5,447 nt of DNA, taken from IMG/VR virus record IMGVR_UViG_2671180669_000012; one strand, 5' to 3'. Numbering within the stretch: the stretch's first letter is position 1; the number at the start of each line of letters is the position of its first letter. This stretch comes from a virus (taxonomy: Duplodnaviria; Heunggongvirae; Uroviricota; Caudoviricetes). Of the stretch, positions 1-5,447 are shown one piece after another. The position numbers and the translations under genes are program-made. The notes under the pieces were generated by a model. It had not been told where the DNA came from. It worked only from the letters and a program-made list of their open reading frames with translations, and did no database searches.

Positions 1-101
1 GGAAAGCGGACAGCATCAGTAACGAAAGTATTTAGCGGGCATGAAAATGGCAAATAACGGTCAAACATCGTGGCGTTGACAACGGGCAGACGCTGACGTT
101 C

Positions 102-2504
102 GTGCAGGACCGACCGTCGGATAAGGTGTGGACCTATAACCGCAGTAATGTGGTGATGCCGGATGATGGCGCGCCGTTCCGCTACAGCTTCAGCGCCCTG
201 AAGGACCGTCATAATGCCGTTGAGGTGAACTGGATTGACCCGAATAACGGCTGGGAGACGGCGACAGAGCTTGTTGAAGATACGCAGGCCATTGCCCGTT
301 ACGGTCGTAATGTCACGAAGATGGATGCCTTTGGCTGTACCAGCCGGGGGCAGGCACACCGCGCCGGGCTGTGGCTGATTAAAACTGAACTGCTGGAGAC
401 GCAGACCGTGGATTTCAGCGTGGGTGCTGAAGGGCTTCGCCATGTACCGGGCGATGTCATTGAAATCTGTGATGATGACTATGCGGGTATCAGCATCGGC
501 GGGCGCGTGCTGGCGGTGAACAGCCAGACGCGGACACTGACGCTCGACCGTGAAATCACGCTGCCATCCTCCGGCACCACGCTGATAAGCCTGGTTGACG
601 GACAGGGGAATCCGGTCAGCGTGGAGGTCCAGTCCGTCACCGACGGCGTGAAGGTGAAAGTGAGCCGGGTTCCTGACGGCGTTGCAGAATACAGCGTGTG
701 GGGGCTGAAGCTGCCGACGCTGCGCCAGCGCCTGTTCCGCTGCGTGAGTATCCGTGAGAACGATGACGGTACGTATGCCATCACTGCCGTGCAGCATGTG
801 CCGGAGAAAGAAGCCATCGTGGATAACGGGGCGCACTTTGACGGCGACCAGAGCGGCACGGTGAATGGTGTCACTCCGCCAGCAGTGCAACACCTGACCG
901 CAGAAGTCACCGCAGACAGCGGGGAATACCAGGTGCTGGCGCGCTGGGATACGCCGAAGGTGGTGAAGGGCGTGAGCTTTATGCTTCGCCTGACCGTGGC
1001 AGCGGATGACGGCAGTGAGCGGCTGGTCAGCACAGCCCGGACGACGGAAACCACATACCGCTTCAGGCAGCTGGCTCTGGGAAATTACAGTCTGACAGTC
1101 CGGGCGGTAAATGCGTGGGGGCAGCAGGGCGATCCGGCGTCGGTATCGTTCCGGATTGCCGCACCGGCAGCGCCATCGCGGATTGAGCTGACGCCGGGCT
1201 ATTTTCAGATAACCGCCACGCCGCATCTTGCGGTTTATGATCCGACGGTACAGTTTGAGTTCTGGTTCTCGGAAAAGCGGATTGCGGATATCAGGCAGGT
1301 TGAAACCAGCGCGCGTTATCTTGGTACGGCGCTGCACTGGATAGCCGCCAGTATCAATATCAAACCGGGCCATGATTATTATTTTTACGTTCGCAGTGTG
1401 AACACCGTTGGCAAATCGGCATTCGTGGAGGCTGTCGGTCGGGCGAGCGATGATGCGGAAGGTTACCTGGATTTTTTCAAAGGAGAAATCGGGAAAGCAC
1501 ATCTGGCCCAGGAGCTGTGGACGCAGGTTGATAACGGTCAGCTTGCGCCTGATCTGGCTGAAATCAGGACGTCCATTACGAATGTCAGCAATGAAATCAC
1601 GCAGACCGTCAATAAAAAACTGGAAAATCAGAGCGCGGCAATCCAGCAGATACAGAAAGTTCAGGTTGATACAAATAATAACCTGAACAGCATGTGGGCC
1701 GTGAAACTGCAGCAGATGAAGGACGGACGCCTTTATATTGCGGGTATCGGAGCCGGTATTGAGAATACGCCAGCAGGTATGCAGAGTCAGGTGCTTCTGG
1801 CTGCTGACCGGATTGCGATGATTAATCCTGCGAATGGCAACACAAAGCCGATGTTTGTTGGTCAGGGCGATCAGATATTCATGAACGAAGTGTTCCTGAA
1901 ATACCTGACGGCTCCCACCATTACCAGCGGCGGTAATCCTCCGGCATTTTCCCTGACACCGGACGGGCGGCTGACGGCGAAAAATGCCGATATCAGCGGT
2001 AACGTGAATGCGAACTCCGGGACGCTCAACAACGTCACGATTAACGAAAACTGTCGGGTTCTGGGAAAACTGTCCGCCAACCAGATTGAAGGCGATCTCG
2101 TTAAAACAGTGGGCAAAGCTTTCCCCCGGGACTCCCGTGCACCGGAGCGGTGGCCATCAGGGACCATTACCGTCAGGGTTTATGACGATCAGCCGTTTGA
2201 CCGGCAGATTGTTATTCCGGCGGTGGCATTCAGCGGCGCTAAACATGAGAAAGAGCATACTGATATTTACTCCTCATGCCGTCTGATAGTGCGGAAAAAC
2301 GGTGCTGAAATTTATAACCGTACCGCGCTGGATAATACGCTGATTTACAGTGGTGTTATTGATATGCCTGCCGGTCACGGTCACATGACACTGGAGTTTT
2401 CGGTGTCAGCATGGCTGGTGAATAACTGGTATCCCACAGCAAGTATCAGCGATTTGCTGGTTGTGGTGATGAAGAAAGCCACCGCAGGCATCAGTATCAG
2501 CTGA
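102..2504 (+). CDS. J: Host specificity protein J (lambda gpJ-like central tail fibre), C-terminal ~800 aa only; 5'-disrupted, probably a gene remnant or pseudogene
   Basis: 800-codon ORF ending at TGA 2502-2504. The translation ([106 protein letters not shown]...) is near-identical, as far as I recall, to the central part of lambda gpJ (about 1130 aa full length). In this frame there are stops at 33-35 (TAG) and 42-44 (TGA), and the other two forward frames are also closed within the first 80 nt. The first in-frame start is GTG at 102 with no Shine-Dalgarno sequence. J-like coding appears to begin around nt 81 (NGQTLTF). Confidence 0.85.
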
Positions 2505-2571: not shown

Positions 2572-2643
2572 ATGCGTAAAGTTTGTGCAGCCATTTTGTC
2601 CGCAGCCATCTGTCTGTCCGTATCCGGTGCGCCTGCATGGGCG
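2572..2643 (+). other. Sec signal peptide of Lom (24 codons)
   Basis: Positively charged N-terminus (MRK), hydrophobic core (VCAAILSAAICLSV), then A-W-A before SEHQ, a typical signal peptidase I site. Predicted by eye only. Confidence 0.6.
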
Positions 2644-3171
2644 TCTGAACATCAGTCCACACTGAGCGCGGGGTATCTTCATGCCCGTACGAACGCTCCC
2701 GGCAGCGATAATCTGAACGGGATTAACGTGAAATACCGTTATGAGTTTACGGACGCGCTGGGGCTGATTACGTCCTTCAGTTATGCCAATGCTGAGGATG
2801 AGCAAAAAACGCACTACAGCGATACCCGCTGGCATGAAGATTCCGTGCGTAACCGCTGGTTCAGCGTGATGGCGGGGCCGTCTGTACGCGTGAATGAATG
2901 GTTCAGCGCGTATGCGATGGTGGGTGTGGCTTACAGCCGTGTGTCGACTTTCTCCGGGGATTATCTCCGCGTAACTGACAACAAGGGGAAAACGCACGAT
3001 GTGCTGACCGGAAGTGATGACGGTCGCCACAGCAACACGTCTCTGGCGTGGGGGGCTGGCGTGCAGTTTAACCCGACCGAATCCGTGACCATTGACCTTG
3101 CTTATGAAGGTTCCGGTAGTGGCGACTGGCGAACGGATGCATTTATTGTTGGTATCGGATACCGTTTCTGA
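2572..3171 (+). CDS. lom: Lom-like outer membrane beta-barrel protein (Ail/Lom/PagC family), prophage moron
   Basis: 199-aa ORF with ATG at 2572 preceded by GAGAGG (2561-2566). N-terminal signal peptide MRKVCAAILSAAICLSVSGAPAWA with an AxA cleavage motif. Motifs shared with lambda Lom as I recall it: GINVKYRYE, VMAGP, SAYAM-GVA-SR, IDLAYEGSGSGDWRTDAFIVGIGYRF with the C-terminal Phe typical of OMP barrels. Position between J and stf matches lambda gene order. Confidence 0.9.
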   Translation: MRKVCAAILSAAICLSVSGAPAWASEHQSTLSAGYLHARTNAPGSDNLNGINVKYRYEFTDALGLITSFSYANAEDEQKTHYSDTRWHEDSVRNRWFSVMAGPSVRVNEWFSAYAMVGVAYSRVSTFSGDYLRVTDNKGKTHDVLTGSDDGRHSNTSLAWGAGVQFNPTESVTIDLAYEGSGSGDWRTDAFIVGIGYRF

Positions 3172-3322: not shown

Positions 3323-5254
3323 ATGACAGTAAAAATTTCTGGCGTGCTTAAAGATGGCACAGGAAAACCAGTACAGAACTGCACCATTGTGCTGAAGGCC
3401 AGACGAACCAGCAGCACGGTGGTGGTGAACACGGTGGCCTCTGAAAATCCGGATGAAGCCGGACGTTACAGCATGGATGTTGAGCATGGCCAGTACAGCG
3501 TCACCCTGCTGGTTGAAGGTTTTCCGCCTTCACATGCCGGGATCATTACCGTCTATGAAGGTTCCAGACCCGGTACGCTGAATGATTTTCTCGGTGCCAT
3601 GACGGAGGATGATGTCCGACCGGAGGCACTGCGCCGCTTTGAGCAGATGGTGGAAGAGGTGTCACGTAACGCCTCCGCGGTTGCACAGAACACGGCAGCC
3701 GCGAAGAAGTCAGCCAGCGATGCCAGCATATCTGCCAGTGAGGCGGCAACCCATGCGACTGATGCTGCAGGCTCAGCACGTGCAGCCAGCACATCAGCCG
3801 GGCAGGCCGCGACGTCGGCTCAGTCAGCGTCTTCCAGCGCAGGAACGGCATCAACAAAGGCTACTGAAGCATCAAAAAGTGCTGCCGCTGCAGAGTCCTC
3901 AAAAAGAGCGGTGGCTACCAGTGCCGGTGCGGCGAAAACGTCAGAAACGAATGCGGCTGCGTCACAACAATCAGCAGCCACTTCTGCATCCACCGCGACC
4001 ACGAAAGCGTCAGAAGCAGCCACTTCAGCACGGGATGCGGCGGCCTCAAAAGAGGCAGCGAAGACATCCGAAACGAATGCGAAAGCCTCGGAAACCAGCG
4101 CAGAATCCTCAAAAACGGCTGCCGCATCGTCCGCCAGTTCGGCGGCGTCATCGGCATCATCTGCGTCTGCTTCAAAAGATGAGGCGACCAGACAGGCGTC
4201 AGCAGCAAAGGGCAGCGCCACGACGGCATCCACGAAGGCGACAGAGGCAGCTGGCAGTGCGACGGCGGCAGCTCAGAGCAAAAGTACGGCGGAATCCGCG
4301 GCAACGCGCGCCGAGACAGCGGCAAAACGGGCAGAGGATATTGCATCCGCCGTGGCGCTTGAGGATGCGAGCACGACGAAAAAGGGGATAGTACAGCTCA
4401 GCAGTGCGACCAACAGTACGTCTGAAACGCTGGCGGCAACGCCAAAGGCAGTAAAATCAGCCTATGACAATGCAGAGAAACGTCTGCAGAAAGACCAGAA
4501 CGGCGCTGATATACCCGATAAGGGACGCTTCCTGAACAACATTAACGCGGTCAGTAAAACAGACTTTGCTGATAAGCGTGGTATGCGTTATGTGCGGGTT
4601 AACGCTCCTGCAGGTGCAACATCTGGAAAATATTACCCTGTTGTTGTTATGCGTTCTGCTGGCTCAGTAAGCGAACTGGCATCAAGGGTCATTATCACCA
4701 CGGCAACGCGAACCGCAGGCGATCCGATGAATAACTGCGAGTTTAACGGATTTGTTATGCCTGGTGGCTGGACTGACAGGGGGCGTTATGCTTATGGAAT
4801 GTTCTGGCAATATCAAAACAATGAACGAGCCATCCACTCAATAATGATGAGTAATAAGGGCGATGATTTGCGCTCTGTGTTCTATGTTGATGGCGCTGCT
4901 TTCCCTGTTTTTGCGTTTATCGAAGATGGCCTGTCAATATCCGCACCTGGTGCTGATCTCGTTGTTAATGATACGACCTATAAGTTTGGGGCAACAAATC
5001 CAGCGACTGAATGTATCGCGGCGGACGTTATCCTTGATTTTAAGAGTGGGCGTGGTTTTTATGAGTCTCATTCGTTAATCGTTAACGATAATTTGTCGTG
5101 CAAAAAACTTTTTGCCACAGACGAAATTGTAGCGCGTGGTGGTAATCAGATTCGAATGATAGGTGGGGAGTATGGTGCATTATGGCGTAATGATGGCGCT
5201 AAAACTTACCTGCTGCTTACCAATCAAGGTGATGTTTATGAAGTGGCACACTGA
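3323..5254 (+). CDS. stf: Side tail fibre protein (lambda Stf N-terminus with Rac StfR-like distal region), 3'-truncated by IS insertion; the last codons and the stop lie inside the IS
   Basis: 643-codon ORF, ATG at 3323 with GGTGGA 5 nt upstream. The N-terminus MTVKISGVLKDGTGKPVQNCTIVLKARR...GQYSVTLLVEGFPPSHAGIITVYEGSRPGTLNDFL matches lambda Stf (orf-401) as I recall it. It contains the conserved tail-fibre motif KKGIVQLSSATNSTSETLAATPKAVK (about 4373-4456). The downstream region (NCEFNGFVMPGGWTDRGRYAYGMFWQYQNNERAIHS..., GGEYGALWRNDGAKTYLLLTNQGD) resembles Rac StfR-type fibres. Intact homologues are about 770-1120 aa; here the frame runs into the IS911 inverted repeat and stops at TGA 5252-5254. 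Confidence 0.85.
   Translation: MTVKISGVLKDGTGKPVQNCTIVLKARRTSSTVVVNTVASENPDEAGRYSMDVEHGQYSVTLLVEGFPPSHAGIITVYEGSRPGTLNDFLGAMTEDDVRPEALRRFEQMVEEVSRNASAVAQNTAAAKKSASDASISASEAATHATDAAGSARAASTSAGQAATSAQSASSSAGTASTKATEASKSAAAAESSKRAVATSAGAAKTSETNAAASQQSAATSASTATTKASEAATSARDAAASKEAAKTSETNAKASETSAESSKTAAASSASSAASSASSASASKDEATRQASAAKGSATTASTKATEAAGSATAAAQSKSTAESAATRAETAAKRAEDIASAVALEDASTTKKGIVQLSSATNSTSETLAATPKAVKSAYDNAEKRLQKDQNGADIPDKGRFLNNINAVSKTDFADKRGMRYVRVNAPAGATSGKYYPVVVMRSAGSVSELASRVIITTATRTAGDPMNNCEFNGFVMPGGWTDRGRYAYGMFWQYQNNERAIHSIMMSNKGDDLRSVFYVDGAAFPVFAFIEDGLSISAPGADLVVNDTTYKFGATNPATECIAADVILDFKSGRGFYESHSLIVNDNLSCKKLFATDEIVARGGNQIRMIGGEYGALWRNDGAKTYLLLTNQGDVYEVAH
3668..4357 (+). repeat. 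Ala/Ser/Thr-rich low-complexity region of the Stf shaft with degenerate internal repeats
   Basis: Stf residues about 116-345 are almost entirely A/S/T/K/E. Repeated motifs: AKTSETNA at residues 204-211 and 246-253 (nt about 3932 and 4058, spacing 126 nt); TASTKATEA at residues 175-183 and 301-309; ESSK-A at 191-195 and 261-265. The GCN/TCN/ACN codon bias leaves overlapping frames free of stops. Confidence 0.7.
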
Positions 5255-5274
5255 ATTTGGCCACCTGAACAGAG
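5239..5274 (+). repeat. IS911 left terminal inverted repeat (IRL)
   Basis: Terminal about 36 bp starting with TGAAGTGG, recognised from memory of the IS911 IRL. The exact inner boundary is uncertain. Confidence 0.7.
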
Positions 5275-5310
5275 GTGATATGCTCACCTCAGAACAACAC
5301 AGGTGCTCCA

Positions 5311-5447
5311 ATGAAAAAAAGAAATTTCAGCGCAGAGTTTAAACGCGAATCCGCTCAACTGGTTGTTGACCAGAACTACACGGTGGCAGATGCCGCCAAA
5401 GCTATGGATGTTGGCCTTTCCACAATGACAAGATGGGTCAAACAACT
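5311..5447 (+). CDS. insN: IS911 OrfA (helix-turn-helix transposase subunit / regulator), 5' part; 3' end off window
   Basis: ATG at 5311. The translation [45 protein letters not shown] matches the N-terminus of IS911 OrfA (InsN in E. coli K-12 nomenclature) including its HTH region. The ORF is open to the window end. Confidence 0.85.

Follow-up and report, generated by a model that had tools for sequence, protein, structure and literature searches.

Insertion of IS21 into J, a lambda-like prophage tail-tip gene, as the very probable cause of a coding breakpoint in a Shigella sonnei draft contig

The stretch of viral DNA analyzed here over its whole length of 5,447 bp (the window) raises the question of why the coding sequence of a lambda-like tail-tip protein, gpJ, appears abruptly close to its left end, at a place where no forward frame leads into it. 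A sequence-only reading of the same DNA had noted that all three forward frames are closed before about nt 80 and had suspected a local rearrangement or an indel-derived frameshift. Our comparisons make it highly probable that the breakpoint is explained instead by a simple IS21 insertion in the J gene of a lambda-like Shigella sonnei prophage.

Translation of nt 1 to 600 in the three forward frames recovered every stop codon that had been listed: TAG at 33-35 and TGA at 42-44 in the J frame (frame 3), TAA at 55-57 in frame 1, and TAA at 20-22 (the stop of istB) and TGA at 77-79 in frame 2. All of these stops lie inside IS21 sequence. The J-like coding said to be recognizable from about nt 81 (NGQTLTF...) is indeed open from nt 81 to the stop at 2502-2504, over 807 codons, and the mechanically called ORF has 800 aa. 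In megablast searches of 5,426 complete E. coli genomes and 50,697 phage records (INPHARED), matches to intact gpJ numbered in the thousands, and every one of them began exactly at nt 81, which is the first base of codon 353 both in lambda J (J02459) and in the J of APEC E12049 (WP_001403613.1, 1159 aa). Since J homology starts at this same base in all matches, the breakpoint is real and sharp. With the breakpoint at codon 353, 352 codons are missing from the window, and not the roughly 330 estimated earlier. The DNA junction proper lies between nt 81 and 82, as the A at nt 81 is the last base of IS21 and coincides with an AAC codon of J; the J alignments begin at 81 because this A equals the first base of that codon. 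The features around the breakpoint are the following.

1..81, plus strand: right end of IS21, comprising the final 81 nt of the 2130-bp element, 100% identical to E. coli IS21 copies in unrelated contexts
2..22, plus strand: 3' end of istB, codons ESGQHQ and the TAA stop at 20-22; the IstB of reference copy L001 (265 aa) ends MVESGQHQ*
82..85, no strand: ACGG, right copy of the 4-bp target-site duplication (TSD), from comparison of both junctions
82..2504, plus strand: 3' two-thirds of the lambda-like tail-tip/host-specificity gene J, residues 353-1159 of 1159
102..2504, plus strand: gene-caller ORF for the J fragment, starting with GTG, 800 aa

Searched alone, nt 1 to 85 have thousands of matches on E. 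coli chromosomes and plasmids, each located directly 3' of an annotated IstB. The matched copies are annotated (PGAP) as 'IS21-like element IS21 family' istA/istB, with helper ATPase IstB, and their neighbors are unrelated (yafV, IS66 tnpC, and a GTPase gene). As a reference, we used three copies (L001 to L003) compared at both ends, so that three independent insertions define the termini. The reference element has 2130 bp, starts with TGTCAGCGCC (IRL) and ends with GGCGTTGACA (IRR), with TG...CA termini and with 4-bp TSDs that read ACAC, AGGG, and ACTC in the individual copies; istB ends 59 nt ahead of its right terminus. In the window, nt 1 to 81 terminate in the same inverted repeat (...GGCGTTGACA at nt 81), J DNA following from nt 82, and both limits, the end of the IS and the start of J, therefore follow from the identity of this segment with the reference copies. 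The possibility that an IS end abuts position ~80 had been raised before, and it is the right end of IS21, reaching nt 81, that was found there. Of istB, the window contains no more than the final 7 codons (ESGQHQ*), and reference copies with identical ends carry both istA and istB, which encode the transposase of IS21 and an AAA+ ATPase helper, respectively. Compared with known IS21 elements, nothing detectably different was seen in this copy, of which the two ends alone are visible: the ends are identical (81 nt in the window and 75 to 83 nt in sister contigs), the termini are TG...CA, and the TSD has 4 bp. All four TSDs examined (ACGG, ACAC, AGGG, and ACTC) start with A, which may reflect a target preference, in a sample of four that is biased by the choice of reference copies for their similarity to the window flank.

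A rearrangement, duplication, or indel frameshift within J had been proposed from a near-duplicate at the junction, where AACGGTCAAACA (nt 56-67, one base to the right of the 55-66 given earlier) and AACGGGCAGACG (nt 81-92) agree at 9 of 12 positions, 25 nt apart. Matches this loose occur in the window at chance level, with 10 occurrences at up to 3 mismatches against 5.8 +/- 2.4 expected from 200 dinucleotide-preserving shuffles of the window, 16 of which had at least 10. In addition, IS21 carries the first 12-mer unchanged in every context compared. Given its chance-level frequency and its position within invariant IS21, the near-duplicate is a coincidence, and its interpretation as the trace of a rearrangement or frameshift was mistaken. 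The same reading was right that nt 1 to 80 do not encode the J residues expected before NGQTLTF, as nt 1 to 81 match IS21 at 100% and show no J similarity whichever frame is read; intact upstream J codons are present on another contig of the assembly. Altogether, an origin of the closed frames by rearrangement, duplication, or frameshift within J itself is refuted.

Insertion of IS21 leads to a precise expectation for the other side of J. With ACGG as the TSD, the left junction of a simple insertion should read ...GTATGGAACGG^TGTCAGCGCCAGTGATATAAGACGGTAA (the junction being marked here and below by ^), and translation across it, on the closest intact J N-terminus, should give a fusion of 362 aa in which J residues 1-354 are extended by VSASDIRR, encoded by the left end of IS21, up to a stop. 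By exact look-up, this predicted protein was found residue for residue in CSS48324.1, CSS98436.1, and CST08497.1, annotated as 'host specificity protein [Shigella sonnei]' on three contigs. Six candidate N-termini were tried in this look-up, and the APEC E12049 version alone exists; those based on lambda, P0005, P0008, and P0010 were absent. A word-indexed protein search returned many partial J fragments and none with the ...WNGVSASDIRR ending among cluster representatives; the fusion was missed there because it is hidden within a 90% cluster, and exact look-up alone found it.

The same kind of look-up, made with the 800-aa ORF, identified the window as the complete contig CXEX01000209.1 of assembly GCA_001261655.1, whose proteins are deposited under the name Shigella sonnei. 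As a complete contig with its left end inside a repeat, the window has no upstream extension. The 800-aa fragment likewise has three matching accessions (CSS39917.1, CSS98853.1, and CST07033.1). The 362-aa fusion is encoded on CXEX01000207.1, from the window's own assembly, and on one contig each in GCA_001258915.1 and GCA_001252655.1. CXEX01000207.1, the longest of the three, carries the tape-measure gene (partial), M, L, K, and I (H'-M-L-K-I), a 112-aa ORF, and the J N-terminal fragment, and its two shorter sister contigs start further along this tape-measure-to-J gene series. CXEX01000207.1 terminates in ...TGGAACGG^TGTCAGCGCC..., which gives the 4-bp TSD ACGG, and all three N-terminal contigs (L007 to L009) stop 75 to 83 nt into an IS21 left end that directly follows ...GGTATGGAACGG and is identical to the reference. 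Compared directly, sister contig L007 has ...GGTATGGAACGG^TGTCAGCGCC at the left junction and the window has ...GTTGACA^ACGGGCAG at the right one, with ACGG present at both (L007 5440-5443 and window 82-85); the target site is represented by the following feature.

Uninserted J sequence at the target site: ...GTATGGAACGGGCAGACG... / ...TGGAACGGGCAG...

When CXEX01000207.1 and the window are joined after removal of the IS ends and one ACGG, an open J of 1159 codons is restored. Against WP_001403613.1, this J has a single amino acid change (S776N) and 6 nucleotide differences over 3480 nt. The earlier alternatives for the first codons of J, namely, that they are absent or lie in a shifted frame, thus both give way to a third: 352 to 354 codons are intact across the IS, on CXEX01000207.1.

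In the mechanism that we propose, IS21 (2130 bp, istA-istB) would have transposed into J in the same orientation as the gene, within codons 353-354 and just after the first base of codon 353, with duplication of the 4-bp target ACGG. The window would then represent the downstream side, with the IS21 right end at nt 1-81 and J resuming at nt 82, and CXEX01000207.1 the upstream side, where J codons 1-354 lead into the left end of IS21. Split in this way, J would leave a 362-aa N-terminal fragment, the last 8 residues of which are IS encoded, and a C-terminal orphan without a proper start. The identity of the IS, both junctions, the TSD, the in silico restoration of J, and the recurrence in three assemblies were all observed directly. 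From the matching TSD, we infer that the two contigs flank one physical copy of IS21, about 1966 bp of its interior being in neither contig.

It is important to consider that the window is a short contig from a short-read draft with repeats at both ends, its limits falling within IS21 on the 5' side and within an IS911-type element on the 3' side. This situation could be taken to favor an assembly chimera between an IS21 read-end and J, with the genomic J being intact. However, the reciprocal left junction is on a separate contig with exactly the 4-bp TSD expected of IS21, the two junctions are seen again in each of three genomes assembled independently (GCA_001261655.1, GCA_001258915.1, and GCA_001252655.1), and a signature of transposition this precise is not expected of a random join, so we regard an artificial origin as very improbable. 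Partial multicopy ISs at both ends of a contig are the usual signature of an assembler halting in repeats. In S. sonnei 53G, 12 IS types have been described, IS21 and IS911 among them (PMC7373316). The short-read assembler would have halted within IS21, where the contig begins, because this element is probably repeated in the S. sonnei genome, and several copies of IS21 in the strain would explain the contig break.

A different history could be envisaged in which IS21 was inserted and recombination between IS21 copies, by inversion or translocation, later parted the two halves of J, so that the two IS ends come from different copies. IS-mediated rearrangements are abundant in Shigella genomes (PMC7373316), and the adjacency of the halves is deduced from contigs that both stop inside the IS. 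On the other hand, each of the three assemblies contains both halves, with the same junctions and with TSD copies that agree, and positive evidence for a rearrangement is null. We give this history a small chance, somewhat above that of an artifact, and the origin of the breakpoint and its consequence for J would be unchanged either way.

Turning to the gene that received IS21, the J fragment shares 99.9% identity over 807 aa with residues 353-1159 of WP_001403613.1 and 76.8% with residues 353-1131 of lambda J; at the sequence level, it represents an almost identical allele of a J that is common in E. coli prophages. The C-terminal fragment has Pfam matches to Phage-tail_3, Ig_J, Ig_J_second, Phage_Tail_Tip, and Ig_GpJ_C, and the N-terminal fragment to FNIII-A_GpJ. 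Once restored, J shows full-length colinear gpJ homology with the gpJ domain set and has in common with lambda gpJ/TipJ the domain families and the J-lom-stf order, its 1159 aa exceeding the 1132 aa of lambda J by 27 residues. Given the 76.8% identity to lambda J, the receptor specificity of this allele may differ from lambda's, which is LamB.

As found, J has no single uninterrupted frame, with IS21 at codon 353/354, and the only start available to its orphan 3' fragment is the internal GTG at 102. The prior claim that a full-length J cannot be made from this locus consequently stands, with J split by IS21 and all frames closed in nt 1 to 80. J is essential for tail initiation in lambda; for this reason, the prophage would be unable to build a tail tip and is presumably tail defective. 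A residual role for the C-terminal part (~360-1159), which holds the receptor-binding end, could be imagined if it were still made by read-through from istB or from the outward TTGACA of the IS, acting in receptor occupation or as a decoy. We consider such a role very unlikely; if true, the orphan fragment would benefit the host, keeping the fragment intact.

Regarding the outward sequence itself, IS21 ends in TTGACA (window 76-81), which faces outward and matches the sigma-70 -35 hexamer perfectly. J has nothing resembling a -10 hexamer 16 to 18 nt beyond it, and no sigma-70-like site occurs in nt 1 to 400, and a hybrid promoter formed by the terminal TTGACA and a -10 in J was rejected on this basis.

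Upstream of J, the 112-aa ORF separates tail gene I from J in prophages of this family (L007 3978-4316, L005 2540-2878, and L010 1040-1378), and in lambda there is no annotated ORF at the matching place. It has no Pfam hit on record and may represent a moron or else a tail gene of accessory function.

The remainder of the window continues the prophage past J until a second IS interrupts it.

2572..3171, plus strand: lom-like gene (Ail/Lom outer-membrane beta-barrel), intact, 199 aa, with Pfam matches Ail_Lom and OMP_b-brl
3323..5238, plus strand: 5' part of an stfR-like side-tail-fibre gene, ~639 of 1025 codons, truncated by the second IS
5239..5447, plus strand: left end of an IS911-type IS3-family element (TGAAGTGGCACACTG... 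/ TGAAGTGGCAC...), running to the contig end

The exact sequence of the lom-like gene is widespread in E. coli. The stfR-like gene matches an intact 1025-aa gene of NZ_CM149869.1 identically up to nt 5240 and is unrelated beyond, its mechanical ORF continuing to a stop at 5252-5254 inside the second IS. There, the orfA of the IS911-type element begins with the ATG at 5311 and is cut off by the end of the contig, with a Pfam match to HTH_Tnp_1 in the product of 5311-5447. The 3' end of the window matches IS3-family copies in thousands of E. coli genomes, and in E. coli UMNK88 this element extends further, into a gene annotated 'IS3-like element IS911 family transposase'. Directly outside the left end of the element, TGATGTTT occurs both in the window (5229-5238) and in UMNK88 (L011 ~1503-1511, in an integrase pseudogene); a flank common to unrelated IS911-type insertions could be due to chance or to a target-sequence preference. 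Because of this common flank, the BLAST matches start ~12 to 20 nt before the true end of the element.

The exact 643-aa truncated stfR-like product is encoded on 6 S. sonnei contigs, twice the count for the IS21-split J. Being on twice as many contigs, the IS911-type insertion in stf probably predates the IS21 insertion in J.

The distribution of the J insertion is narrow. No match spanning the junction in nt 1 to 400 was found among the 5,426 complete E. coli genomes, the INPHARED phages, and the PLSDB plasmids, where matches covered either 81-400 or 1-85. The exact 40-mer of the junction had 0 hits in the GTDB species-representative genomes, as expected because Shigella is folded into E. 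coli there. The insertion site was found in three draft assemblies only, with the consecutive-looking prefixes CXEI, CXEX, and CXEY. Its presence in three drafts with neighboring prefixes, and in none of the complete E. coli genomes, plasmids, and phage records searched, suggests that the insertion of IS21 in J is recent and lineage specific.

As to its kind, the event is a textbook case of an IS entering a structural gene of a prophage, a form of prophage decay that is ordinary and well understood. IS-driven decay of prophages is exemplified by the Rac prophage of E. coli K-12, in which lomR is interrupted by IS5. Here, it is a tail gene of a resident lambdoid prophage that is inactivated by an IS; a second, IS911-type IS also cuts the neighboring stf, and the site is known from three drafts. 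In Shigella, IS expansion and pseudogenization are well documented (PMC7373316).

For draft genomes in general, abrupt breakpoints at the ends of short contigs usually correspond to IS boundaries where the assembler halted. For the annotation of these S. sonnei genomes, the two deposited 'host specificity protein' coding sequences are the halves of one pseudogene disrupted by IS21, and the insertion of IS21 in J could be used as a lineage marker for the three related isolates.
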